Origin: Sedimentisphaera cyanobacteriorum
GTDB lineage: Bacteria; Planctomycetota; Phycisphaerae; Sedimentisphaerales; Sedimentisphaeraceae
Direction of reading: 5' to 3'
Assembly: GCF_001997385.1 (NCBI RefSeq)
Contig: NZ_CP019633.1
Coordinates: 2,340,001 to 2,372,000 of the forward strand
Length of the DNA: 32,000 bases
Part shown: piece after piece, positions 4,159-32,000 of the stretch
How positions within the stretch are numbered: position 1 is the first letter of the stretch
Layout of the letters: the number at the start of each line of letters is the position of its first letter
Program-made: the position numbers and the translations under genes
The notes under the pieces: generated by a model
What the model was told of the DNA's origin: nothing
Databases searched by the model: none
Seen by the model: only the letters and a program-made list of their open reading frames with translations

Positions 4159-4271
4159 CGCTAAGGATTTTGTGTTTTCATTTTACCGCGAAGCCCTCGA
4201 AACACACGAAGGGGATATTTAATTTATTTTCCACAGATGGCACAGATTATATGAATGTAAGCGATTGCGAT
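4159..4271 (-). repeat. mosaic repeat module T1 (truncated copy)
   Basis: Contains CGAAACACACGAAGGGGAT and CCACAGATGGCACAGAT, which are the reverse complements of ATCCCCTTCGTGTGTTTCG and ATCTGTGCCATCTGTGG. It aligns with 30545-30672 (same strand) and with 11530-11629 and 23540-23640 (opposite strand). Confidence 0.85.
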
Positions 4272-4542
4272 AAAAATAGGGGACAGTTACCTATTTTTAA
4301 TAGTAAAAAGCTTTATAAAATAATGAGATAGGGAATTGGCCGGCATAAGAATTTGGTTGAGATGAGACGGCAAGTGGTTCGTCAAGAGCAGCTGCCGCCC
4401 AACAAGCATATTTGCTCGGTTTAAAGCCTTGGTGAAGCAATTACACAGAAAAAAAACTGTCGAGTAAAAGCCTGTGAATAATCAAAGAAGCTGCAAACTC
4501 ACATCAGTTGAAAACAATTATTAGGTAACTGTCCCCTATTTT
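4272..4542 (+). mobile_element. MITE-like non-autonomous element, copy 1 (271 bp)
   Basis: Terminal inverted repeats AAAATAGGGGACAGTTACCT (4273-4292) and AGGTAACTGTCCCCTATTTT (4523-4542). There is no ORF inside. The whole element recurs inverted at 31661-31956. Confidence 0.8.
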
Positions 4543-5010
4543 AAGCGGTTCGCTGCTTAATAATGCAGCGTCGTATAGCGGAGGAGCGCAAGCTCCCCGC
4601 TAGGATAGCGAAACGTGAAGAGCCGGCGGTAAGCGAAAAATCTTTTCTAAAAGAATCCCTATCGGGTCCGCCACGGCGAACTCCGCTGTAGTACGGGGGA
4701 TGTTAAACATTGAGCCTGTCCGCCGCAGGCGGAGAGTTAGCGGCAGCTGAAGGAGAAAAACTTTCCCCTTATCATTGCCTTGAACTTTAAAAATCCTGTC
4801 TAAAAATATCCCCTTAGTGCTTCTTAGCGCCGCTCAGTGGCTGGAATATCTCAGTGCTGCTCGTGGTTTAAACCAATTAAAAAATCTTCGTGTTCCTCCG
4901 AGCACTTCGCGGTTTAAACCAATCCCACGTGGTTCAAACAAATTACCCGCTGAAAAATTTCTCTCCGCCTTTTCCTTATTTAATATTTATCCTGTTAATC
5001 CTGTCTAAAA
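4543..5010 (-). repeat. mosaic repeat H-T2 (long repeat), copy A
   Basis: Reverse complement of 22676-23116. By eye there are about 19 differences over ~420 aligned nt, including 113 consecutive identical nt (4845-4957 vs 22704-22816). It also matches 11853-12203. Confidence 0.9.
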
Positions 5011-5068
5011 ATTATCACCTTAGCGTATCTTAGCGCTGCTCAGTGGCTGGAATATCTCAGCTCTGCTC
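4999..5068 (+). repeat. local ~70-bp direct re-duplication of 4795-4862
   Basis: CCTGTCTAAAAAT..CCTTAGCG.ATCTTAGCGCTGCTCAGTGGCTGGAATATCTCAGC.CTGCTC repeats the 4795-4862 segment with a handful of mismatches. Confidence 0.8.
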
Positions 5069-5175
5069 AGCGGCAGTAAATCACGGCAAAGTGATTATTG
5101 AAATGCACTGCGAAGCTGAGGTCTTTGGCTTGCCAGATCAGCAGAAATTCGTTATCATTGACATCCTGTGAAAGC

Positions 5176-6150
5176 ATGGGAAAGAAAATGGAAAAAGTTT
5201 TAATCATAAGCGACGGCAAACCCGGCCACGTCAATCAGGCCAGAGCATTATGCAGCATTATGGGCTGGGAATGCATTGAGGCAGTTGCCGAATACAGGCT
5301 CAAGGCATTCAAGGCAGCGGGCTATCTGCTCGATTCGGTCAGGCTGCATTCGAGCCTTCCGTTCACACTCACCTTCAGCAGCTCAGGCGAGCGGGCAGAA
5401 GCAGAGAATATGCCTGCTGGGATCACCAGAATCGCAGCGGTGAGCTCGGGTGCATACTATCCGGCCAAGGTGCTCGCAAATCGCCTCGGGGTTGAGGTGA
5501 TTGCTTTGATGCTCCCTCGGGGCATACGCAAATCAGACTTCTCGCATATCTTCTGCCCATCCTACGACAATCCCCCTCGTGCGGAGAACATAACACCTGT
5601 GCCAATCACGCTCTGCAGCAGGGGCGAAAGCTTTTACGCCCAGAAAGCTGGCGAATTCACAGAGAAAACCGGCATGAAAGGCCCCTCTGCAAGCGTTATA
5701 ATCGGGGGGGAAAATGCGTACGGAAGAATCGAGCCGGAGAAGATTCGAGGTCAGCTCGAGAAAATCTTCGAGAAAACCCCCAATCTCGAGCACTGGCTCA
5801 CAACATCCCGCCGCACAAGCAGAAAGGTAGAAAAGACAGCCGCTTCTTTCCCGTTCGATTATAAGCTGATCTTCTCTGAAAGCCGGTACAACCCCATCCC
5901 AGCGTTTATAGGAATGAGCGAATACATCTTCGTTACCAGCGATTCATCTTCTATGATCAGCGAATGCGTCAGTACGGGCAGTGCGAAGGTGGAGGTGCTC
6001 AAAAACGAGCCGAAAAGAAAGAGCAAATTCGACAGATTCCTCGCAGAGCTTCAAGCAGAAGGCTGCGTACACATATTCGACGGCACATTAGGCGATGCAG
6101 ACAGGAAGATAAATCTGGAGGAGAAAATCCGGTCGGTTTTGGAAGACTGA
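5176..6150 (+). CDS. ELM1/GtrOC1-family putative glycosyltransferase (mitochondrial fission ELM1-like family)
   Basis: The ORF has VLIISDGKPGHVNQARAL near its N-terminus, matching the DGK.GH.NQ signature I recall for bacterial ELM1-family proteins. I place the start at ATG 5176 because the track's TTG 5098 extension lies inside repeat DNA. ATG 5188 is also possible. Confidence 0.6.
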   Translation: MGKKMEKVLIISDGKPGHVNQARALCSIMGWECIEAVAEYRLKAFKAAGYLLDSVRLHSSLPFTLTFSSSGERAEAENMPAGITRIAAVSSGAYYPAKVLANRLGVEVIALMLPRGIRKSDFSHIFCPSYDNPPRAENITPVPITLCSRGESFYAQKAGEFTEKTGMKGPSASVIIGGENAYGRIEPEKIRGQLEKIFEKTPNLEHWLTTSRRTSRKVEKTAASFPFDYKLIFSESRYNPIPAFIGMSEYIFVTSDSSSMISECVSTGSAKVEVLKNEPKRKSKFDRFLAELQAEGCVHIFDGTLGDADRKINLEEKIRSVLED

Positions 6151-8961: not shown

Positions 8962-11208
8962 CTATTTTCGTTTCCTTTTCGATTTTCTTTTTCTGCTATG
9001 TGTGTATGAGCGGCGGTCTTTGGTTTTTGCCTTGAACTTGTGCTTCTTTTCGTGTTTGGGCTTGAGCTCTGTTTTCTTAACGAGCGGCTCGACGGGCAGC
9101 AGAGTAATCTGACGAATCGGGACAACCACATTCGTTATCGTAACATCAATCTCAAGCCCAATCCGCACGCGAACGCCGCTGTGCTGACCGGTAAGACTCT
9201 GGGATTTCTCGTGAAACTCCCATCTGTCCGGCCCGAGCTCCTCAGAGGATATAAAGCCTTCAATCCCGAATTTTTTGCACTGAACGAAGATTCCCTTGCG
9301 GATAACGCCTGAAACGTAGCATTCGAGGGTTTCGCCGACCTTCTTCTCGAGCATCTGAAGAATCAGCACCTTCTTCAGATCCCTCTCAGCATTCTCCGCC
9401 TTGTCTTCTGTACTGCTGATATACCCGCCCAGCTGCACAAGGTCTTCCTCTGAGGGGATTCCCATCTTTTCGCTGAGCCGGCCTTCCTTTAGGTATTTAT
9501 CCAGCAGGCGGTGTATGGTGAGGTCTGCGTATCTTCTGATGGGGCTTGTAAAGTGGGTGTAATGGCGCGAAGAGAGGGCATAATGGCCGATATTCTCAGG
9601 GGAATAAACTGCCTTCTGAAGGCTCCGCAGCACGGCATTATTCACTGCATACTCAAGCCCTGTTCCCCGAACCTTATCGAGAATTTTACGCAGCGATTCT
9701 CTGTCCGCGCTGGAGGGCAGCTTCATCCCGCAAACGCTCACGAAATCCGCAAGCCTCTGGGCGCTGAAAGCATCGGGGTCGGGGTGTATTCTGCGGATAA
9801 ACGGGATATCGAAGCTGTCGAGCAGCCTTGCCACAGCCTCATTCGCCTCCACCATAAACATCTCGATTATCGTATGCGGATAGCTTTGGTCTGCGGGGTT
9901 TGCATCTACCACCTCGCCGTTGTCATTGAGCACAAGGTCAATATCCGGCAAATCCAAATGGATCATACCGTCCTGCTCCCTTCGCTTTTCGATCCTTCGG
10001 GCGAGCATATCCATATCTCTGAGCAGTTTGTAAATTTCCTGCGGGAAATCGAGCTTTTCACCCTGAAGCATCCTGTCTGCATCCCTGTAGGTTAGACGAG
10101 CTGAAGACTGAATCAGGCTGTTTGCGTATTTGGTTTTGCTCTTGATTACCCTGCCTCGCTTGTCGTATGTGATGTAAACGCTCTTGGCGAATCGGGGCTG
10201 ATTTGGCTGCAGAGAGCATACGCCGTTGCTGAGAACTTCAGGCAGCATAGGCAGAACCCTGCCGGGAAGATATACGCTGTTCCCGCGAAGGCCTGCCTCC
10301 TCATCTAGAGCCGAGCCCTGCGTTACAAAGCGGCTGACATCTGCAATATGAATTCCCAGAACGGGATTGTTATCCTCATCAAACTCAAGGCTGATTGCAT
10401 CGTCGTAGTCTTTCGCTGTATCGGGGTCTATCGTGATAAGCTCCTTATCGCGGATATCATCATAGCCCTTGCCCGGCTTGAAATCAACGTCTGCGCATTT
10501 TCTCGCCTGCTCAGTGCATTGTTTATCGAATCCGCTTCGAAGCTCGAAATTCTTGATAGTAGCTTCGATTTCCGTTTCATAAAGCCCCGCTCTGCCTATA
10601 ACATCAATTATCACAGCCTTTCCGGGGGTTTTGTCCTTTGGATACTTGAGCACCTCATAATACACCTTGTCTTCCTGCTTCGCTCCCTTGATTTGAGGAT
10701 CGTCAACGTTGAACGGGGCTTTGAAGAAGTTCCCGTCCGGCACGATCATCCATCTGCCTTCATTTTTATAGAGAGTGCCGGTAGAGGTGGTTTTTGCCCG
10801 CTCAATCACCTTGGTTATCTTGCCGGCAAGCAGGAATTTCTTTCCTTTTCGCCGTCTTCGTATTACCTTCGCCTCCACGATATCACCGTCGCAGGCGCTG
10901 TTTATATTGTGGCGTTCTATGCGGAGATCGCCGTCTCGTGTGGCGGTAAGCGGGGCAACGAAGCCGAATTCCTGCCTTGTTGAGCGGAACTTGCCCTTAA
11001 CAACATCGCCTGAGCTGGGCAGTGTAATGCGGGAGTTTTTCCCGATATCCAGAAGGCCTTCCTCAAGCATATTTTGAACTGTCTGGCTGAACTGCTCTCT
11101 CTGCTGCTTATCGTCAGCACCGAGCATCTCAGCTAACCGATTTTCAGTTACAGGGGAATATTCAGAATTCTTTACGAATTTTAGAATCCTGTCTTTAAGA
11201 CTTTTCAT
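8962..11208 (-). CDS. rnr: ribonuclease R
   Basis: 748-aa ORF with cold-shock-like N-terminal domains, an RNB catalytic domain (GIHIADVSRFV), an S1 domain (ECYVSGVIRKGIFVQ..GIEGFIS) and a Lys/Arg-rich C-terminal tail. Confidence 0.95.
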   Translation of the reverse strand: MKSLKDRILKFVKNSEYSPVTENRLAEMLGADDKQQREQFSQTVQNMLEEGLLDIGKNSRITLPSSGDVVKGKFRSTRQEFGFVAPLTATRDGDLRIERHNINSACDGDIVEAKVIRRRRKGKKFLLAGKITKVIERAKTTSTGTLYKNEGRWMIVPDGNFFKAPFNVDDPQIKGAKQEDKVYYEVLKYPKDKTPGKAVIIDVIGRAGLYETEIEATIKNFELRSGFDKQCTEQARKCADVDFKPGKGYDDIRDKELITIDPDTAKDYDDAISLEFDEDNNPVLGIHIADVSRFVTQGSALDEEAGLRGNSVYLPGRVLPMLPEVLSNGVCSLQPNQPRFAKSVYITYDKRGRVIKSKTKYANSLIQSSARLTYRDADRMLQGEKLDFPQEIYKLLRDMDMLARRIEKRREQDGMIHLDLPDIDLVLNDNGEVVDANPADQSYPHTIIEMFMVEANEAVARLLDSFDIPFIRRIHPDPDAFSAQRLADFVSVCGMKLPSSADRESLRKILDKVRGTGLEYAVNNAVLRSLQKAVYSPENIGHYALSSRHYTHFTSPIRRYADLTIHRLLDKYLKEGRLSEKMGIPSEEDLVQLGGYISSTEDKAENAERDLKKVLILQMLEKKVGETLECYVSGVIRKGIFVQCKKFGIEGFISSEELGPDRWEFHEKSQSLTGQHSGVRVRIGLEIDVTITNVVVPIRQITLLPVEPLVKKTELKPKHEKKHKFKAKTKDRRSYTHSRKRKSKRKRK

Positions 11209-11378
11209 ACAATCGTATCCTTTGCAAATTTAACAATCTGGAAATTATAACCCTTCAGCTTTGAATTACCAAACAATAAAATAAGATAAAAATCACTGAA
11301 AAATTAATGGGTTCTAAAAATATTCGAGAAAGATACTAGACTGATTAACTTGTTTTTATTTTAAAAATTTTGAAAGTA

Positions 11379-11629
11379 TTTTACACAGAGCCTGCGGCGG
11401 ACAGGCGGGAAGTAAAAAGATGGTATTTTTAAACAGGATTGACAGGATTATTGGGCGGGTGATTGGTTTAAACCGAGAAGGACTCGGAGGAACACGAAGG
11501 GTTTTTATTGTAAATTGTTTTACAGCAATGCTTTACCTTTGTAAATTATCTGTGTTATCTGTGGATAATAAATAAATCAAAAAATTATCCCCTTCGTGTG
11601 TTTCGTGGTAAAACAAAACATAAAATTTT
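11379..11629 (+). repeat. mosaic repeat H-T1, copy B
   Basis: The order of motifs is TTTACACAGAG, a degenerate CCTGCGGCGGACAGGC hairpin, AAACAGGATTGACAGGAT, GGGCGGGTGATTGGTTTAAACC, CACGAAGGG, ATCTGTGTTATCTGTGGATAATAAA, then ATCCCCTTCGTGTGTTTCG. It is colinear with 23332-23667. Confidence 0.85.
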
Positions 11630-11683
11630 CCTATCTCTCCATCTCATCCTGTAGATCCTGTTAATCCTGTCCAATATTATATC

Positions 11684-11852
11684 TTCTCCGCTAACTCTCC
11701 GCCTGCGGCGGACAGGCTCAATGTTTAATATTCCTTTTACATCGGTGGTTAAATTATTCTTAATTGAGGCTGTTTTTCTCATCACCGGCCAGAGAGCTGC
11801 CCCGCAATTTGATATTCTGCACCAATGCGGGGGCTGAAGTTTTTACACAGAG
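11684..11852 (+). repeat. mosaic repeat module P, copy B
   Basis: 169 nt differing from 23174-23342 at 6 positions by eye. It contains the CCGCC-TGC-GGCGG hairpin and the CCCCGCA..19 nt..TGCGGGG hairpin, and ends in TTTACACAGAG. Confidence 0.9.
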
Positions 11853-12203
11853 ATATCGGAGGAAGCGGAGGGGATTTTTTGGGTGGGTATTTTTTTTTAT
11901 CCTCGTGGGATTGGTTTAAACCGCGAAGGGCGCGAAGAATTTTTGTAATTGCTTTAAACCACGAGCAGCGCTGAGATATTTCAGCCGCTGAGAAACGCTA
12001 AGAAGCACTAAGGGAATATTTTTAGACAGAATTTTTAATGTTCAAGGCAATGATAAGGGGAAAGTTTTTCTCCTGCAGCTGCCGCTGACTCAGATGTTTA
12101 ACATCCCCCGTACTACAGCGGAGTTCGCCGTGGCGGACACCGCTGTGCGACGCTGCATTATTAAGCAGCGAACCGCTGGCTCAGTCAGTAAATGCGGCGG
12201 CCA
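11853..12203 (+). repeat. mosaic repeat H-T2, copy B (deletion variant)
   Basis: Colinear with 22740-23143 but lacks three blocks. These are the NACAGGAT iteron block in the head, the ~23-nt CCGCC hairpin (C coordinates ~22928-22950) and an 84-nt block between CCGCT direct repeats (C coordinates 23001-23084). Confidence 0.85.
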
Positions 12204-12413
12204 ACGCTAACGCTAGGGAAAATCTGAGTATATGCATTTTATGGTCCTGCTGTAATAACAACAAATTCTGTTTAGTTTTTTCCCAATACGCGCAGTTTAT
12301 CCAATCGATACTCACTTTATCGTATCTTATTTGCAATTTCAAGCAAAAATAATTGTAAACATTAAGATTTTATGATAAATTCAGCTGTGATGAATTTTTA
12401 AGCGGTTTTGTAA

Positions 12414-13163
12414 ATGCCAATCCAAACAGCCTGCATAACTGATGAGTTAATCCAAACTGCAAACGCTGTTCTCTGGCCTTCAAGGTGTCTGAGCTGCGGG
12501 GAGCCTGCCTCTCCGGGGCAGCCGCTCTGCGGGGCGTGCTGGGAAGGGCTCAGAGATGCGTGCAGTGATTATGCCTGCCCGAGGTGCGGGGCGGTTGTGA
12601 GCGAGGAGGCCGCTAAAAACAGCATGTGCGGGTTCTGCATCAACAAAAAGCTCTACATAGACGGCTTCGCCCGCTCCGGCAGATACGAAAGCACACTTAG
12701 AAACCTCGTACTTATGCTAAAGCATTCGGAAAATGCCGCACTGATAAAGCTCGTTCGAATTCTAGCTGCCTCGGCCTTCCAAAACAGATTCGCATCAGAG
12801 CGGATTGATTGTGTATGCCCTGTACCTCTGCACTGGACACGCCGCTGGGCAAGGGGATTCAATCAGGCCGGAGTTCTCGCTGAAGGGCTCAAATCCATCG
12901 GAATTCCTTCCAGAACTGAACTAACACGAAAAAAACAGACAAAACCTCAGCCTGTAATGCAGAGCTACAGCAAACGAATGAAAAACGTGAGAGGGGCGTT
13001 TGCAGTCAAAAGATTTGCTGATGTGCGCAGAAAGAGCATCCTGCTGGCTGACGACGTTCGAACATCCGGCGCAACGCTGAACGAATGCGCCCGAGTGCTC
13101 AAAGAGGCGGGAGCGGAAAGGGTGTATGCCCTCACGCTCACCGTGCCGGCAGGGCAGATTTAG
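12414..13163 (+). CDS. comF: ComF family protein (phosphoribosyltransferase domain)
   Basis: 249-aa ORF with N-terminal Cys-pair zinc-ribbon motifs (CLSCG, CGACW, CPRCG, CGFC) and a C-terminal PRTase motif (LLADDVRTSGATL). Confidence 0.85.
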   Translation: MPIQTACITDELIQTANAVLWPSRCLSCGEPASPGQPLCGACWEGLRDACSDYACPRCGAVVSEEAAKNSMCGFCINKKLYIDGFARSGRYESTLRNLVLMLKHSENAALIKLVRILAASAFQNRFASERIDCVCPVPLHWTRRWARGFNQAGVLAEGLKSIGIPSRTELTRKKQTKPQPVMQSYSKRMKNVRGAFAVKRFADVRRKSILLADDVRTSGATLNECARVLKEAGAERVYALTLTVPAGQI

Positions 13164-15185: not shown

Positions 15186-15258
15186 GGCCCCATCGTCTAG
15201 TGGACTAGGACATCAGGTTTTCATCCTGAAAACAGGAGTTCGATTCTCCTTGGGGCTA
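15186..15258 (+). tRNA. tRNA-Glu (anticodon UUC)
   Basis: I folded the cloverleaf by hand. The acceptor stem is GGCCCCA/TGGGGCT, the D stem GTCT/GGAC, the anticodon stem TCAGG/CCTGA with loop TTTTCAT (anticodon TTC), and the T arm AGGAG-TTCGATT-CTCCT, with discriminator A. It is 73 nt long and CCA is not encoded. Confidence 0.93.
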
Positions 15259-15301: not shown

Positions 15302-15563
15302 ATTGCAAACTCCTTCAATCACAAGGGTTTACATCACTTCCCCCTTCGCCTTCCTGCTCTTCCCTGCAAGGCCTTGCGGCGGATTTGTGCAGACTTTCTT
15401 CAGCTGGTCTGAACACTGCAGGAAAAGTTCACTATTGCCATCCTTTGGGATTCGCTGGATATATCGCCGATTCTGAAATTCAATGACCGGTGTATTGAGG
15501 TTTGTATTTTAGGGTAAATTTTCTTGACAAATAAACATTTTTTTTATATATTTTATAATCAAA

Positions 15564-16854
15564 ATTTTAATCTGAAGCGCAACTTTTTTCATCGCTCCAG
15601 AGCACTTCATTTGGTGTCCGATATTTTAAACATTTCCTTGGTCGATTATTGATTAAGGCGACAACTTTGTCAAGTTCCTTATCACTAACTTTCTTAAAAT
15701 CAGTTCCCTTAGGGAAGAACTGACGAAGTAGGCCGTTTGTGTTTTCATTAGTTCCACGCTGATAAGAACTGTATGGATCAGCAAAGTAGCAGCATAGGCC
15801 GACTGTTTTTTCCATCTCTTTAAACTGGGCAAACTCCTTGCCATTGTCAACTGTCATCGTTTGACGCTTGGACTTTGGTATCTTCCTGAACAACCTTCGG
15901 GTGGTTTCATTCATGCTCTGGGCACTCTTATCTTTCATCCTGCCAGAGAGCAGATAGCGGCTTGCACGCTCGACATGTGTCGCAATAAATGAACCGTGTC
16001 CTTTACCGCTGACGCTGTCACCCTCCCAATCGCCGAAGCGATTACGCTTGTCAACAACCTCCGGACGCTCACTGATCGAACGTTTGTTCGGTATCCGGCC
16101 ACGCTTGTCATTACTGCCGTGCTTCTTTCGTCGTTTGCGACGGCCTTGACGCAAAAACTTGTAAAAAACACCGCCGTCAACCTTGTCTCGTTTAACCCAA
16201 CTATATATGGTCAAAGGGCTTACACGCATTTGGGCATTATCTGGATAGTCGATTTCAAGACGGCCTGCTATCTGTTCAGGCGAGTGATATTGCTCGAGTT
16301 TACTGCATACTCGACGACGAAGACGGCCATTCTGTTCAAGCCGATATGGCTGCTTGGATGCGGCCCTGCGTTTGCTGTAATATCGCTGGGCCAGGTGGGG
16401 CTTATAATCATGGGTTGAGGACATGTTTCGATTCAACTCACGGCTGATAGTGCCCTTGCTCCTGCCGAGATATATGGCGATTTCCAGTAAATTTTTTCCT
16501 TCAGATCGCATTTTTAGAATGCTTTCTCGCTCATTAATGTTAAGATGTCTATAGCCCATTGCGGTTCCTTAAATAGAGTACTTTTTCGTCAAAAAAACAT
16601 TCTATCGAAAACAACCGTAATGGGTGCTCTTTTTTACTTTTTAAAAGCAATCGCCATCGCTATAATAGATTATCTTGTTGCAGGGGATAGGGCAATGCTG
16701 GAGAGCAACCCGAGCACCGCAACAATCTATACTGGATAGAGGCGGCTTAACCGCCGCCCTTATTCTTTATCTATTCAGGCAGCTAAAAGCGATAAACTCC
16801 AGCCCGCCACGCGGGCTGATTAAATTAGCGAAGCGTTGCGCTTCAAATTAAAAT
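15564..16854 (-). mobile_element. IS30-family insertion sequence (~1.29 kb)
   Basis: The terminal inverted repeats are ATTTTAATCTGAAGCGCAAC (15564-15583) and the reverse complement of 16835-16854 (ATTTTAATTTGAAGCGCAAC), matching at 19/20. The transposase stop codon lies inside the left IR. I see no obvious target-site duplication (flanks ..TCAAA and CTAAG..). Confidence 0.85.
15567..16559 (-). CDS. IS30 family transposase
   Basis: 330-aa ORF with an N-terminal HTH (LEIAIYLGRSKGTISRELNRN) and a DDE integrase-like catalytic core (..GDWEGDSV.., ..TVDNGKEF.., ..RGTNENTNGLLRQFFPKG..). Confidence 0.93.
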   Translation of the reverse strand: MGYRHLNINERESILKMRSEGKNLLEIAIYLGRSKGTISRELNRNMSSTHDYKPHLAQRYYSKRRAASKQPYRLEQNGRLRRRVCSKLEQYHSPEQIAGRLEIDYPDNAQMRVSPLTIYSWVKRDKVDGGVFYKFLRQGRRKRRKKHGSNDKRGRIPNKRSISERPEVVDKRNRFGDWEGDSVSGKGHGSFIATHVERASRYLLSGRMKDKSAQSMNETTRRLFRKIPKSKRQTMTVDNGKEFAQFKEMEKTVGLCCYFADPYSSYQRGTNENTNGLLRQFFPKGTDFKKVSDKELDKVVALINNRPRKCLKYRTPNEVLWSDEKSCASD

Positions 16855-17295
16855 CTAAGTAATAAACGAAATAACGGCGAAATAAGCGGCTCCTTATCCA
16901 TTGAAAACGACGGCACTGTTGAGGTAGGCTCGCATATCTACGCTCCGTACTATTCCGGCACTCTCACTGTTGAAGACGGAAGTGTTTCCAGCGATTATAT
17001 AAAGGTTGACTCTGGAGCGGATATGACAATAAATATTGGACAGGAAGGCTCTATTGAATTTAGGGATGCATCTGTCGCAAACAACATCTCAGATCTTATC
17101 AATAATGCCTTTTCCGGCGAGGGCAGCATTAATTTGAATATCTGGAATGATGGTTCGTATGTTGACTATGCCACATTAACCGACGGCAGCGATTATAAGG
17201 TAGAGAACGGAACGTTGTTTGTTCCAGAACCTGCCACGATGGCTATGCTTGGTTTAGGCGGCCTTGGGCTCTTGCGCAGCAGACGCAAATCATAA
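16855..17295 (+). pseudogene. 5'-truncated PEP-CTERM protein gene (C-terminal remnant)
   Basis: The reading frame is open from the first nucleotide after the IS30 right IR (my translation: LSNKRNNGEISGSLSIENDGTVEVGSHIYAPYYSGTLTVEDG..) through to the PEP-CTERM sorting signal VPEPATMAMLGLGGLGLLRSRRKS. There is no signal peptide, and no matching 5' part lies on the other side of the IS. The track's 17023 ATG is internal. Confidence 0.7.
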
Positions 17296-22495: not shown

Positions 22496-22675
22496 TTTGC
22501 TTTTCCTCAATAGATTCAAAATGAAAAACAATATTATAAACAAATTTCAATGCTTGCAAAACCATTCAGGGCTATCTCCGAGAGTTTGAAAAGTTTTTTG
22601 ATCCGCAGAATGAGCAGCAGCGGTTCACCCCTTAGCATTTTAATAATCCCTTCAACGGGATAGACAGGTTGTTTT

Positions 22676-23143
22676 TTAGACGGGATTAACGGGATTTACA
22701 GGATTTTTCAGCGGGTAATTTGTTTGAACCACGTGGGATTGGTTTAAACCGCGAAGTGCTCGGAGGAACACGAAGATTTTTTAATTGGTTTAAACCACGA
22801 GCAGCACTGAGATATTTCAGCCACTGAGAAACGCTAAGAAGCACTAAGGGGATATTTCTAGACAGAATTTTTAAAGTTCAAGGCAATGATAAGGGGAAAG
22901 TTTTTCTTCTGTAGCTGCCGCTGACTCTCCGCCTGCGACCGACAGGCTCAATGTTTAACATCTCCCGTACTACAGCGGAGTCCGCCGTGGCGGACCCGCT
23001 AGGCATTCTTTTAGAAAAGATTTTTCGCTTACCGCCGGCTCTTCACGTTTCGCTATCCTAGCGGGGAGCTTGCGCTCCTCCGCTGTATGACGCTGCATTA
23101 TTAAGCAGCGAACCGCAGGCTCAGTCCGTAAATGCTGCGGCCA
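22676..23143 (+). repeat. mosaic repeat H-T2 (long repeat), copy C, the most complete copy
   Basis: The order of motifs is TAGACGGGATTAACGGGATTTACAGGAT, CAGCGGGTAATTTG, two GGTTTAAACC palindromes, CTGAGATATTTCAGCCACTGAG, CAAGGCAATGATAAGGGGAAAG, then the hairpins at 22974-23000, 23060-23084 and 23091-23110. It matches 4543-5010 (inverted) and 11853-12203. Confidence 0.9.
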
Positions 23144-23173
23144 GTCTATAGTAGATACTGGCTGTCCGCTTAT

Positions 23174-23342
23174 TTCTCCGATACCTCTCCGCCTGCGGCG
23201 GACAGGCTCAATGTTTAATATTCCTTTTACATCGGTGGTTAAATTATTCTTAATTGAGGCTGTTTTGCTCATCAACGGCCAGAGAGCTGCCCCGCAATTT
23301 GATATTCTGCACTAATGCGGGAGCTGAAGTTTTTACACAGAG
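23174..23342 (+). repeat. mosaic repeat module P, copy C
   Basis: Differs from 11684-11852 at 6 of 169 positions by eye. A partial third copy lies at 31957-32000. Confidence 0.9.
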
Positions 23343-23667
23343 GTATCGAAGGAAACGGAGAGGATATTTTTTAGACAGGATTAACAGGATTGACAGGATA
23401 GATATTTGATAAGGGAAAGGCGGAGAAAGATTTTTGGGCGGGTAATTTTTTTAATCCTCGTGGGATTGGTTTAAACCGCGAAGGGCTCGAAGGGCACGAA
23501 GATTTCTGTTAGTTATTTAATAGAAGGGCTTTACATTCATAAAATTATCTGTGTCATCTGTGTCATCTGTGGATTAAAAAATTAATTCAGACCATATCCC
23601 CTTCGTGTGTTTCGCGGGCCTCGTGGTAAAAAAACATAATATCTGTGGATAATAAATTTCGCTGCGG
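23332..23667 (+). repeat. mosaic repeat H-T1, copy C, the most complete copy
   Basis: The order of motifs is TTTACACAGAG, CGAAGGAAACGGAGAGG, three NACAGGAT units (23371-23399), GGGCGGGTAATTT, GGGATTGGTTTAAACCGCGAAGGGCTCGAAGGGCACGAAG, three ATCTGTG units (23547-23574), ATCCCCTTCGTGTGTTTCG, then ATCTGTGGATAATAAATTTCGCTGCGG. It ends 130 nt before the valS ATG. Confidence 0.88.
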
Positions 23668-23797
23668 ATTAAATATTTTTAATCGGTTTATTCGAGCCAT
23701 ACATGGAGGACGCAGCAGTCGGTTATTGCTTTACACAAACGGGTAATTTGATACCATTACGCTTAAAATTATCAGCTTGAATTGGTACAGGTTAATT

Positions 23798-26721: not shown

Positions 26722-26808
26722 CGGATTTGCAAAACGCTTAAATCTCACCTCGAACTCATTTTATGCAGCAGCTCAGAGCAGAAATCGAAGGTATCTCGAC
26801 TAATTAAC

Positions 26809-28344
26809 TAGTCGCCCCTGAAAAAGTTTAAAATTTTCCTTAAATTCTTTCCTGATAATGGTTTATATGATTGAAAAGCTTTCGAGATATGGTATAATAT
26901 TGCAAGTGTTTATCTTACATCTATCAAAACATTGCAATATTGGGACAAAATAATGAAGGCAAAAAACAATAAAGCAGGCTTACTCTTTCAGCAGCCATTA
27001 AAACCTCTTGTAAATCCTGATCACTCTTTAGTCCAACTCTCAGAGGTTGTCAACTGGTCTCGCTTTGAAGAGAAGTTTGGCAGTTTATACAGTCCTGATT
27101 CAGGCAGGCCGGCCAAGCCGATTCGCCTGATGGTCGGCCTTCAGTATCTCAAGTACACTTTCAATCTCAGCGATGAAGCAATCGTTGCCGGCTGGGTTGA
27201 GAATCCTTACTGGCAGTATTTCTGCGGCGAAAGATACTTCCAGCACGAGCCTCCTATTGATCCAACCAGTATGACTAAGTGGCGTAATAAGGTAAAATCT
27301 GATGGTCTTGAAGAGCTGCTCGAAGAAACTATCAAAGCCGGCTTGAAGCTTAAGGTTATCAAAAAGAACGATTTCAACAAGCTCGTTGCAGATACAACCG
27401 TTCAGCAGAAGAACATCACTTATCCGACCGACGCAAAACTCTGCCACAAACTGCGCATTAAGCTTGTAGATCTTGCAAAAGCATCAAAACTCCAACTTCG
27501 CCAAAGCTACGAAAGGGTTGGAAAAAGGGCGTATGTAATGCAGGGCAGGTATCGACGTGCAAGACAGTTCAAAAGAGCTAAAAAAGAAGTGAAGAAATTA
27601 AGGAACTACCTGCGGCGAATTACGAAAGAGGTCGAGCGGAATATAGCAGGCAATGAGCAGTTAAGAATAATTTTTGATACATTGCTTCAAGCCGCTAAGA
27701 AGCTTTTAGCCCAGACAAAGAAAAGCAAAAATAAGCTCTACAGTATTCACGAACCTCACGTCTGCTGCATTGGGAAAGGCAAAAGCCACAAGAAATATGA
27801 GTTTGGAAATAAGGTTGGAATTGTAACTACTGCCAAGAATAATTTTATCGTAGGAGCGTTGGGCTTTGAAGGAAACCCTTATGATGGCCATACTCTTCGG
27901 GCTAATCTGAAGCAGACAATGAATTTAATCGGGAGAGAAAAGCTTGGAGATGTTTATGTTGATGGAGGATACAAGAAACATGGCTGCGAAGATATTGGAA
28001 ATGTTGAAATTGTAGAAAAGGGCTGGCGAAAAAAGAAACGAAGTATCAAGAGGTGGATTAAGAGAAGATCGAGCATAGAACCAACGATAGGCCACCTCAA
28101 AGAAGACAACAGGTTGGGAAGAAACTTCTTGAAAGGTGTAGAAGGGGACAAAATGAACGCCCTCGGCAGCGCTTTTGGGTACAATATGCGTAAACTTCTA
28201 GAGAAGTTTACTTTTGCCTATATTTTTATGCTTAAAATTATTGAATTTTACAGAAATTTGGCAATGAAAAGCAAATTAAAGACTCGATTAGCCTGATATA
28301 TTTTTTTAGTTTCCCCAAAATCATTGATTTTTCAGGAACGACTA
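26809..28344 (+). mobile_element. IS5-family insertion sequence (~1.54 kb)
   Basis: The terminal inverted repeats are TAGTCGCCCCTGAAAAA (26809-26825) and the reverse complement of 28328-28344 (TAGTCGTTCCTGAAAAA), matching at 15/17. It has a single transposase ORF and is more AT-rich than the surroundings. Confidence 0.8.
26953..28296 (+). CDS. IS5 family transposase
   Basis: The N-terminal DUF772-type region (LVNPDHSLVQLSEVVNWSRFEEKFGSLY..GRPAKPIRLMVGLQYLKYTFNLSDEAIVAGWVENPYWQYFCG) and the DDE domain are typical of long IS5-family transposases. I place the start at ATG 26953, because the track's 26932 start is a TTG. Confidence 0.9.
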   Translation: MKAKNNKAGLLFQQPLKPLVNPDHSLVQLSEVVNWSRFEEKFGSLYSPDSGRPAKPIRLMVGLQYLKYTFNLSDEAIVAGWVENPYWQYFCGERYFQHEPPIDPTSMTKWRNKVKSDGLEELLEETIKAGLKLKVIKKNDFNKLVADTTVQQKNITYPTDAKLCHKLRIKLVDLAKASKLQLRQSYERVGKRAYVMQGRYRRARQFKRAKKEVKKLRNYLRRITKEVERNIAGNEQLRIIFDTLLQAAKKLLAQTKKSKNKLYSIHEPHVCCIGKGKSHKKYEFGNKVGIVTTAKNNFIVGALGFEGNPYDGHTLRANLKQTMNLIGREKLGDVYVDGGYKKHGCEDIGNVEIVEKGWRKKKRSIKRWIKRRSSIEPTIGHLKEDNRLGRNFLKGVEGDKMNALGSAFGYNMRKLLEKFTFAYIFMLKIIEFYRNLAMKSKLKTRLA

Positions 28345-28600
28345 TTTATTAACCGCTAATTTTAACTAATTTCCGCTAAGATGGTTTCTTCGTGGTGAAT
28401 AATTCATTTTAAAACCCCGGAGGGCGCTAAGGGCACGAAGGGTTTTTGTAAATTATTTTATAACAAGGGCTTAGATTTTTAAAAATCTGCGTCATCCGTG
28501 CCATCTGTGGATAATAAATTTCGCTGCGGGCTCGAAAGATCAACTATCCGCTTGTTGTCCGCCTTCGGCGGACTGGCTCAGTTGATAGATAATAAATTCA
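28345..28600 (+). repeat. mosaic repeat region D (degenerate H words, partial T1, REP-like nested hairpin)
   Basis: The order of motifs is CCGCTAAG, CGGAGGGCGCTAAGGGCACGAAGGG, ATCTGCGTCATCCGTGCCATCTGTGGATAATAAATTTCGCTGCGGG (cf. 23641-23667), then the GTCCGCC-TTC-GGCGGAC hairpin (28557-28573) nested inside ATCAACT/AGTTGAT (28539-28545 / 28580-28586). Confidence 0.75.
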
Positions 28601-30510: not shown

Positions 30511-30780
30511 TTTAGAACCACGAAATTTAAACCAATCCCCCCAACCAAAAAATTGTGTTTTGTTTTATCACTAAGGGGCCGAAACACACGAAGGGGATAT
30601 GGTTTTGATTGTTTTTTTATCCACAGATGACACAGATGGCACAGATTTTATTTGAATGTAAGCGATTGATGTAAAACAATTTATAACATAAATTTTCGAG
30701 CCCTTTGAGCACTTCGTGATTTTAACAAATTACCCGCCCAAAAAATCCTGCCAATCCTATCGAAGGTATTATTGAAATGC
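30511..30780 (-). repeat. mosaic repeat H-T1, copy E (inverted, degenerate head)
   Basis: The reverse complement reads ATAGGATTGGCAGGAT, TTTTGGGCGGGTAATTTG, CACGAAGTGCTC.., AATCTGTGCCATCTGTGTCATCTGTGGAT, ATCCCCTTCGTGTGTTTCGG, GGGGATTGGTTTAAATTTCGTGG. Its gene-proximal end lies ~160 nt upstream of the sulfatase ATG. Confidence 0.8.
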
Positions 30781-30833
30781 AGGGGCGAACCAGAGCGAAC
30801 GCCCCATTTTTAGCCGCAAAAGATTATTCGTAC

Positions 30834-31493: not shown

Positions 31494-31660
31494 GATAAAC
31501 ACCTTTCACAATTCTCTAAAAAAACAATTAAACATACTTCTTTTGAGTTAACAAAACTGAATTGAAAAATCAAATTAATTTTAAGTATTTTTCCTGATTT
31601 TCTAAATTTTTCATGCGGCTTAAAGTGATTGGAGGTAAATCTTTGCCGCACTTTTTACCT

Positions 31661-31956
31661 AAAATAGGGGACAGTTACCTAATAATTGTTTTCAACTGAT
31701 GTGAGTTTGCAGCTTCTTTGATTATTTTTTAGAAAACCAATTTCTGATTGTTCACAGGCTTTTAATCGGCATTTTTTTCTGTTTAATTGCTTCATCAAGG
31801 CTTTAAACCGAGCAAATATGCTTGTTGAGCGGCAGCTGCTCTTGACGAACCGCTTGCCGCCTCATCTGAGCCAAATTCTTATCCCGGCCAATTCCCTATC
31901 TCATTATTTTATAAAGCTTTTTACTATTAAAAATAGGTAACTGTTCCCCTATTTTT
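31661..31956 (-). mobile_element. MITE-like non-autonomous element, copy 2 (296 bp, inverted relative to copy 1)
   Basis: It has the same TIRs (AAAATAGGGGACAGTTACCT at 31661-31680 and AGGTAACTGTTCCCCTATTTTT at 31935-31956). By eye it shows about 14 substitutions plus a ~25-nt indel relative to 4272-4542. Confidence 0.8.
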
Positions 31957-32000
31957 CACCGCAATTTGATATTCTGCACCAATACGGGGGCTCAATGTTT
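31957..32000 (+). repeat. partial P module at the window edge
   Basis: CACCGCAATTTGATATTCTGCACCAATACGGGGGCTCAATGTTT matches 11808-11845 and 23298-23335 and then runs into the GGCTCAATGTTT motif. It is cut by the window end. Confidence 0.7.

Follow-up and report, generated by a model that had tools for sequence, protein, structure and literature searches.

Mosaic repeats in the intergenic spacers of Sedimentisphaera cyanobacteriorum: a probable lineage-specific family reshaped by recombination and slippage

Introduction

The divergent spacer between rnr, which encodes RNase R, and a comF-like phosphoribosyltransferase gene of Sedimentisphaera cyanobacteriorum is 1.2 kb long and contains an array of repeated DNA modules, which is the subject of this work. 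The array was analyzed in the context of a 32-kb stretch of the genome (the window, to which all coordinates without a prefix refer) as well as 37 kb of Sedimentisphaera salicampi. Positions prefixed L003 or L007 are in S. salicampi, those prefixed L004 in a related metagenome-assembled genome (MAG) of the Phycisphaerae (GpsA 71% identical). To our knowledge, almost no repeat families have been described in the Planctomycetota and especially in the Phycisphaerae, and in the literature no paper on repeats in Sedimentisphaera was found. A preliminary description of the array had interpreted it as a modular element with exchangeable tails. Here we present evidence that the modules probably belong to a lineage-specific family of mosaic intergenic repeats.

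Repeat-bearing spacers are designated A (hom/ELM1-like, 4166-5068), B (rnr/comF), C (gpsA/valS), D (28350-28590), E (30547-30810) and F (31503-32000). Units consisting of a head (H) and a tail of type T1 or T2 are numbered from the left of each array. In the rnr/comF spacer these are B1 (H-T1) and B2 (H-T2, linked to P), in the gpsA/valS spacer C1 (H-T2) and C2 (H-T1, linked to P).

Results and discussion

Array B extends from about 11377 to 12203 and is composed of H-T1, an inverted block of iterons, the module P and H-T2, while array C has the order H-T2, P, H-T1 (Table 1). These module positions and the permuted order had been given in the preliminary description, and sequence matches place each module where it had been described. 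P at 11684-11880 is 94% identical to 23174-23370, H-T2 at 11865-12203 matches 22693-23143 as well as the reverse complement 4968-4544, and H-T1 at 11435-11629 is 72% identical to 23464-23642 and 73% identical to 30758-30547. Between arrays B and C, the identity amounts to 91-96% for P and T2 and to about 72% for T1. Thus, the same modules recur in another order and the DNA is modular. An assembly artefact is unlikely because the copies differ by 4-30%, their flanks are unique and the matching record, the closed chromosome of S. cyanobacteriorum with GpsA and ValS 100% identical to those of the window, is a single contig of 2,951,611 bp.

In a self-comparison of the window, repeated DNA was restricted to spacers (4166-5068, 11435-12203, 22663-23667, 28409-28529, 30547-30758 and 31660-32000), and BLAST E-values down to 1e-85 exclude chance repeats. 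The family is present in at least five further nearby spacers, including 4166-5068, 28409-28590, 30547-30810 and 31959-32000. Inside each of the three arrays the modules share one orientation, and in four of five spacers the array points toward the downstream gene. The existence of multi-copy, co-oriented modules confined to spacers is therefore directly supported.

The family appears to be built from three kinds of blocks: a short word array termed W, small TCCGCC-N3-GGCGGAC hairpins, and larger bodies, namely P, the spacer of T1 and Y, the ~125-nt three-armed core of the T2b tail. W is about 40 nt long, begins with TTTAAACC or TTTTACC, continues with three words of the CGAAG/CGGAG/CTAAG type at 9-10-nt spacing and ends with GGGGATAT. 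When twelve pieces were aligned, the head core proved to be a variant of W, as did the TTTACACAGAG junction and the reverse-complemented right arm of T1. With a W profile, 13 copies, all of them intergenic, were detected in the window at E<1e-3 and on either strand, and the word arrays with their 9-10-nt period were flagged independently by Tandem Repeats Finder. The TTTACACAGAG junction, previously taken for the join between P and a head, is instead the start of another W copy. Upstream of W the head is variable: the number of ACAGGATTn iterons ranges from zero to three, and the g block is accompanied in some copies by a k block and in some by an h block. P is made up of inverted CTCCG words, a CCGCC-TGC-GGCGG hairpin (11699-11711), a body and a CCCCGCA...TGCGGGG hairpin (11800-11832); the first of these hairpins shares a 17-nt exact match with the left edge of array B (11701-11717 and 11390-11406, respectively).

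The CCGCC-N3-GGCGG hairpin, allowing up to one mismatch, occurs five times in spacers versus 0.97 expected. Further variants of it occur in T2b and in S. salicampi, and the hairpins are flanked by CTC...ACAGGC or AGT...CC. The extended form, TCCGCC-N3-GGCGGAC, was found in several unrelated contexts in both Sedimentisphaera species. The small hairpin also lies within a 44-nt context that is common to two copies of P and two copies of T2.

The T1 unit consists of W, a spacer of ~75-95 nt and an inverted W. Its fold-back, which resembles a MITE (a miniature transposable element with inverted repeats) or a REPIN (an inverted doublet of repetitive extragenic palindromes, REPs), folds far better than shuffled sequences (z=-4.8). 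The pairing between W and inverted W also exists at 23465/23637 and 30730/30557, the arms being ~60-70% alike, and the T1 copy at 30547-30758 carries C-to-T in its left arm together with a matching G-to-A in its right arm. The perfect DnaA-box 9-mer TTATCCACA was detected four times versus 0.17 expected, in each case inside T1 (11560-11568, 23644-23652, 28506-28514 and 30617-30625), and ATCTGTGGA forms an invariant core in five T1 copies whose identity is otherwise ~51%.

Comparison of the individual units revealed chimeric heads and tails. In its head (11876-11937), B2 is closer to C2 (93.5% identity) than to C1 (73%), and its tail (11941-12091) shows 94% identity to the C1 tail. B2 thus joins a C2 head to a C1 tail, and heads and tails do not move together. 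B1 has a W (11461-11507) closer to the one in C1 (89%) than to the one in C2 (65%); the tail of B1 is nonetheless T1. In the boundaries of Table 1, this W is most similar (89%) to those in the T2-bearing units, located at 22738-22782 and 4923-4879. Judged from these identities, heads and tails are swapped relative to array C, with switch points located inside the CGAAG word array, and the head/tail junction of B2 at 11937/11938 coincides with the loss of one word. A swap of this kind is what homologous recombination between W copies, either unequal or ectopic, would produce, and the 'exchangeable tails' could be accounted for by it without a transposing P-H-tail unit.

Such a transposing unit, P-H with one of two tails and two insertions per array, would build on the P-H plus tail unit of the preliminary description. 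It would fit the observation that a head follows P in arrays B and C and that both, with one orientation per array, can be read as sub-windows of an alternating series P-H-T1-P-H-T2. We nevertheless regard it as unlikely. The head is a mosaic of iterons, k, g, h and W, and these mosaic heads co-vary neither with P nor with the tails. The first unit of arrays B and C lacks P, and the modules at the left start of both arrays differ. At 31959-32000 the end of P joins CTCAATGTTT and no head is present, so that P is not always followed by one. Furthermore, H-T1 occurs solo at 30547-30810 and Y solo in S. salicampi, and neither terminal inverted repeats nor target-site duplications were seen at the level of the unit.

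Compared to array C, the H-T2 copy of array B had been described to lack three blocks. These gaps are real and bounded by short direct repeats, and the sequences flanking them are 92-96% identical. About 60 nt comprising the iterons and the k block (23371-23430) are absent at 11875/11876, between CGGAGAGGAT-like and CGGAGAAAGAT-like repeats; ~21 nt with the CCGCC-TGC-GGCGG hairpin are absent at 12091-12093; and an 83/84-nt block bounded by CCGCT (23001-23084) is absent at 12139. In addition to these, one 9-10-nt CGAAG word is absent at 11937/11938, which appears to be a change in word number within the tandem array. The claim that whole sub-structures were removed holds for two of the gaps. 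The 84-nt block, previously described as one hairpin domain, corresponds to the two inner arms of a three-armed structure of which the outer stem and one hairpin are kept.

T2b is predicted to fold into a closed multi-branch structure (z=-3.2) with Y, present at 22965-23090 and 4571-4696, as its core; the 84-nt block makes up two of the three arms of Y. When a covariance model built from the Y copies was used in a cmsearch, 12108-12150 was recovered without model positions 32-114 (83 positions) at E=5.6e-07. Retained are the outer stem and the first hairpin, and both inner arms are gone. S. salicampi contains Y alone (L007:12935-13062, 74% identity, 34 of 36 core positions identical), 68 nt downstream of valS and on the opposite strand. 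As this outgroup copy has the 84-nt block, the corresponding gap in array B is a derived deletion, and the absence of the small hairpin is a loss because its 44-nt context is common to P and T2. Two of the four gaps can thus be polarised as deletions. Turnover by slippage or recombination at short repeats, as suggested in the preliminary description, fits the gaps as well as the polarised deletions. The excision of palindromes located between direct repeats by replication slippage is well known. By itself, the module-precise loss is no proof of a designed modular element, as hairpin-promoted slippage at flanking short repeats would give the same result. What is directly seen is the trimming of copies at short direct repeats around hairpins.

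The differences between copies could alternatively be due to insertions of tiny mobile hairpins or domains, comparable to the very small dispersed repeats that are found inside MITEs of cyanobacteria. The scattering of the TCCGCC-N3-GGCGGAC hairpins over unrelated contexts in both species could be understood in this way, as could the dispersal in the spacers of the related MAG of a REP-like hairpin similar to the third arm of Y, and the CCGCT motifs around the 84-nt block are readable as a target duplication. Insertion appears quite improbable to us, since the outgroup copy already has the 84-nt block, this block never occurs alone in the available data, and the 44-nt context common to P and T2 makes the small hairpin older than the split of the two modules.

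Table 1. Features of array B and its flanking genes, and further repeat arrays in the window
Feature	Position	Strand	Remarks
rnr (RNase R)	8962-11208	-	flanking gene of array B
Left edge of array B	11377-11424	+	W-type start TTTTACACAGAG fused to half a CCGCC/GGCGG hairpin CCTGCGGCGGACAGGC, then A/T linker
Two ACAGGATTn iterons	11432-11448	+	9-nt period
W module (head core)	11462-11508	+	GGTTTAAACC and three CGAAG/CGGAG words; nhmmer E=1.5e-09
T1 spacer	11509-11583	+	ATCTGTG words; perfect DnaA-box 9-mer TGTGGATAA at 11560-11568; sigma-70-like site at 11519-11547
Inverted W, right arm of T1	11584-11619	-	pairs with W 11462-11508; nhmmer E=4.1e-06
Three ACAGGAT iterons, inverted	11646-11674	-	reverse complement of 23371-23399 (90%)
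P module	11684-11838	+	94% to 23174-23328; 69% to S. salicampi L003:1591-1768
W of CGGAG type (TTTACACAGAG junction)	11839-11879	+	nhmmer E=1.8e-06; site of ~60-nt iteron and k gap at 11875/11876
g and h blocks, W with only two CGAAG words	11876-11937	+	93.5% to head of T1-bearing unit, 23431-23492
T2a	11938-12091	+	second GGTTTAAACC, then CTGAG/CTAAG words and linker; 94% to 22777-22927
Site of ~21-nt CCGCC-TGC-GGCGG hairpin loss	12091-12093	+	
T2b structured tail	12094-12203	+	Y remnant 12108-12150 (outer stem and first hairpin); 83/84-nt deletion at 12139
comF-like phosphoribosyltransferase gene	12414-13163	+	flanking gene; ~210 nt unique DNA between gene and array
Sister array C, gpsA/valS	22618-23667	+	H-T2, P, H-T1; complete Y at 22965-23090
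Third array (A), hom/ELM1-like spacer	4166-5068	-	H-T2 96% to 22703-23116; interrupted by MITE 4272-4543 with terminal inverted repeats, then T1 remnant
Solo H-T1 unit (E)	30547-30810	-	between sulfatase and PEP-CTERM genes
Diverged W/T1-like unit and CCGCC-TTC-GGCGG hairpin (D)	28350-28590	+	IS5-family insertion in word array just upstream

The modules could also be functional RNAs, either structured small RNAs or elements of 5' or 3' untranslated regions, e.g. Y, or GGA-rich ACAGGAU/CGGAGG sites for protein binding. RNA structure is possible for Y, which is kept across species with three of 39 pairs changed on both sides, and the folds of T2b and of the T1 fold-back exceed those of shuffles as given above. 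The direction of the arrays toward the downstream gene would be compatible with such a role, as would a sigma-70-like site at an equal position in two T1 copies; promoter-like matches are, however, no commoner than in shuffled sequences. RNAalifold yielded unfavourable covariation terms for both Y (+0.78) and P (+4.12), the long arms break in S. salicampi, and P, which has no conserved fold besides the small hairpin, folds no better than shuffles (z=-1.0), so that P was rejected as a structured RNA. Among Rfam families, only tRNA-Glu was above threshold in the window, the best matches in the arrays having E>1, and no terminators were found in the modules. The iteron block occurs in both orientations, and RNA genes do not typically occur in high copy number, as mosaics or truncated by other elements. 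Taken together, we consider it rather improbable that the modules are functional RNAs.

Two related candidates were rejected as well. A mobile promoter in T1 was dismissed because only two of five copies pass a lenient consensus scan and such matches are equally common in shuffles. A type I toxin or another small coding open reading frame (ORF) was considered for the 38-aa MFNIP... ORF of P, which is not conserved: the second copy has two replacements and a premature stop, and in S. salicampi there is no start codon. Another ORF of 101 aa on the minus strand (22970-23275) is located wholly inside the T2b and P repeats and is almost certainly spurious.

Similarly doubtful is a combination in which the W arrays, the ACAGGAT iterons and the DnaA-box core of T1 form dispersed binding platforms and Y and P are structured RNAs of a new family, either cis-acting or small RNAs; if true, the arrays would be a recombining modular regulatory system between divergent genes. 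Very improbable, finally, is that the arrays are DNA-level platforms on which T1 titrates DnaA and the 9-nt iterons and words bind a regulator or nucleoid protein: the confinement of all four perfect DnaA-box 9-mers to T1, the invariance of ATCTGTGGA, a similar ATCTGTGGATT motif beside P in S. salicampi and the regular word period would suit this role, but each unit has one box only, the four copies are not independent because of shared descent, the motif also fits the '...GGAT + A/T' word ending of the family, so that the match to a DnaA box may be a coincidence, and neither dnaA or oriC features in the window nor any experimental or comparative tie to replication were found.

The cumulative GC skew of the window has a V-shaped minimum at ~16500-17000, which may merely reflect gene orientation. 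Proximity to oriC was rejected, since neither dnaA nor other origin features exist in the 32-kb window.

Overall, the arrays are probably best explained as a lineage-specific, non-coding family of mosaic intergenic repeats that has been reshaped by ectopic recombination and hairpin-promoted slippage, two processes that we infer from the patterns described above. The W copies would serve as portable homology, and ectopic or unequal homologous recombination between them would let arrays grow and be reshuffled. The hairpins would draw the short repeats at their flanks together and favour slipped-strand mispairing, by which words and whole hairpin domains would be lost. The first spread to new spacers may have required an enzyme encoded by the host or by an insertion sequence (IS), or may have occurred by recombination alone. 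Most likely, the elements are selfish or neutral passengers in permissive spacers. The landing of unrelated mobile elements (MITE copies and an IS5-family element) suggests that the arrays are tolerated junk sites. In relatives at ~70% amino-acid identity the spacers are short and have no arrays. A pattern scan of contigs of other genomes yielded only two chance matches (Bacteroidales and Deltaproteobacteria), and no repeat copies were found elsewhere in two metagenome scans, for which the head core and the cross-species junction were used, respectively, or by BLAST against plasmids.

Several points weigh against this explanation. Target-site duplications are lacking at the edges of arrays and units, of which few are independent, and no pairs of empty and filled sites were found; mobility is therefore not demonstrated. 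Furthermore, no transposase with W-like ends is present in the 32-kb window. P (69%) and Y (74%), whose cores exceed 90%, are more similar between the two Sedimentisphaera species than the four-fold degenerate sites of rnr and valS (62%), which could fit either a persisting repeat family or a function. The position of the perfect DnaA-box 9-mer, with its four occurrences against 0.17 expected, in the most conserved block of T1 could likewise speak for a function. Finally, recombination and slippage are read from patterns in 5-6 arrays and four indels, the latter too few for statistics on breakpoint placement.

S. salicampi also has a P-like element upstream of rnr (L003:1591-1768), which is 69% identical to P, has the opposite orientation and another neighbourhood and is bounded by inverted CTCCG/CGGAG word arrays. 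In the same region upstream of rnr (L003:1150-1345), tandem AGACCGGTTCAAAAAT-like iterons of ~45-50 nt were observed beside a gene with a weak match to a DnaG zinc ribbon. L003 contains internal duplications (278-444 and 1314-1480) and resembles the remnant of a plasmid or phage, located at the end of a contig. In the related MAG, a weak W-like word array CCCTTCGCGCTCTTCGCGTGC (L004:9872-9907, E=0.014) is located upstream of gpsA and antisense to it, as are the W copies in the window. Spacers of this MAG (L004:617-1100, 2390-2856, 4945-5281 and 11801-12042) contain GTAG-tagged REPs of the form GTAGGGGC...GCGCCC, the dispersed REP-like hairpin GCGGGGCGCTTGCGCGCCTCCGC, which resembles the third arm of Y, and other short repeats, e.g. 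GAGACGCAAGATTTTGCGTCTC and GGTGAATTCAAA.

Other mobile elements were identified in the window. A separate MITE of ~270-300 bp with 21-nt terminal inverted repeats AAAATAGGGGACAGTTACCTA is present at 4272-4543 and 31660-31955, its copies being 93-100% identical; the first truncates a T2 module and abuts a T1 remnant, the second abuts a truncated P. An IS5-family element (26805-28348) encodes a DUF772 and DDE_Tnp_1 transposase (26932-28296), has the inverted repeats TAGTCGCCCCTGAAAAA and TTTTTCAGGAACGACTA and sits in an array of CTAAT/CTAAG words, flanked by TTAAC on either side. An IS30-like element (15544-16874) with an HTH_38 and rve transposase (15567-16559) and imperfect inverted repeats of 40 nt adjoins tRNA-Glu (15186-15258). 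The inverted repeats of both IS elements are unrelated to the arrays, and the IS5-family element was rejected as a parent on these grounds. Tn3-like GGGG termini were rejected too, because the GGGG of W faces inward.

By analogy, the arrays appear to belong to the known class of bacterial mosaic intergenic repeats and not to be a new kind of system, their sequence being unrelated to that of the analogues. The family seems to work like bacterial interspersed mosaic elements (BIMEs), REPs and REPINs, the intergenic mosaic elements of Neisseria (NIMEs), BOX elements and MITEs, yet it does not have the defining sequence features of any of them (tags, dRS3, A-B-C frame and target duplications, respectively). 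BIMEs, REPs and REPINs of Enterobacteria and Pseudomonas (PMC3333891, PMC3116915, PMC3733652) are likewise intergenic, high-copy, mosaic clusters of small GC-rich stem-loops and short motifs. The inverted doublets around a spacer in REPINs are comparable to the T1 unit, and both persist within a lineage. The CCGCC-N3-GGCGG hairpin matches the description of a REP as an imperfect high-copy palindrome of 20-40 nt, whereas the GTAG/CGTC tag at one end of REPs (PMC3733652) is absent from the array hairpins; a CTAC beside the outer stem of Y reads CTTT in S. salicampi. W is a word array and no palindrome, the modules are much larger (170-450 nt) and the sequences are unrelated. REP pairs in BIMEs alternate in orientation with few linkers, whereas the hairpins here have one orientation with long, differing modules between them. 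A REP-associated tyrosine transposase of the IS200/IS605 type (RAYT) was not found within the 32-kb window.

Compared by description, NIMEs, which are repeat units between dRS3 elements (PMC3184786), resemble the arrays in their varied unit order and in a short shared junction repeat that would be able to recombine. This junction is the 20-bp dRS3 in NIMEs and a ~40-nt word array or a hairpin here; the sequences are unrelated, and no link to phage or IS110-type integration was seen in the arrays. The pneumococcal BOX elements, boxA-boxB-boxC (PMC3049150), share with the arrays a modular composition with variable internal modules, module-precise presence or absence, stable predicted folds and a location in spacers near gene starts. 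They have a fixed A...C frame, whereas here both ends vary, and their modules and phylum are different. MITEs are matched by the T1 unit, which is non-coding, multi-copy and ~170-250 bp long with imperfect inverted arms of ~38 nt. Terminal inverted repeats are found in the T1 unit only, though, and the repeat extends past the arms on both sides; no target-site duplications were seen and no parent IS with the same ends exists in the window. Further MITEs and IS elements have inserted into the arrays, a feature shared with MITE arrays of the nested or tandem kind.

The DNA nearest to the promoters is spared by the arrays, with 100-200 nt intact on each side. The promoter-proximal 95 nt of rnr (11211-11305) lie outside the array and are 79% identical in S. 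salicampi, whose RNase R is 93% identical; the neighbours of rnr and of valS in S. salicampi differ from those in the window. The 58 nt adjacent to valS (23719-23776 and L007:9922-9979) are 98% identical in both species. This identity just upstream of valS exceeds that of the coding sequence (87%), and the 58 nt include a promoter-like TTTACA-16-TACCAT with an upstream TG.

Conclusions

By itself, the repeat family described here raises no new biological question unless its modules bind DnaA or are functional RNAs. It should be useful for genome annotation, because spurious ORFs, e.g. the one at 22970-23275, fall within the arrays. Moreover, the arrays are a compact example of mosaic repeats swelling bacterial spacers to more than 1 kb, with short word arrays that would act as recombination junctions for the swapping of element parts, and with hairpin domains that are cleanly lost while the enclosing stem is kept. 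They may serve as markers for strain typing and are a likely source of the numerous rearrangements between the two Sedimentisphaera species.

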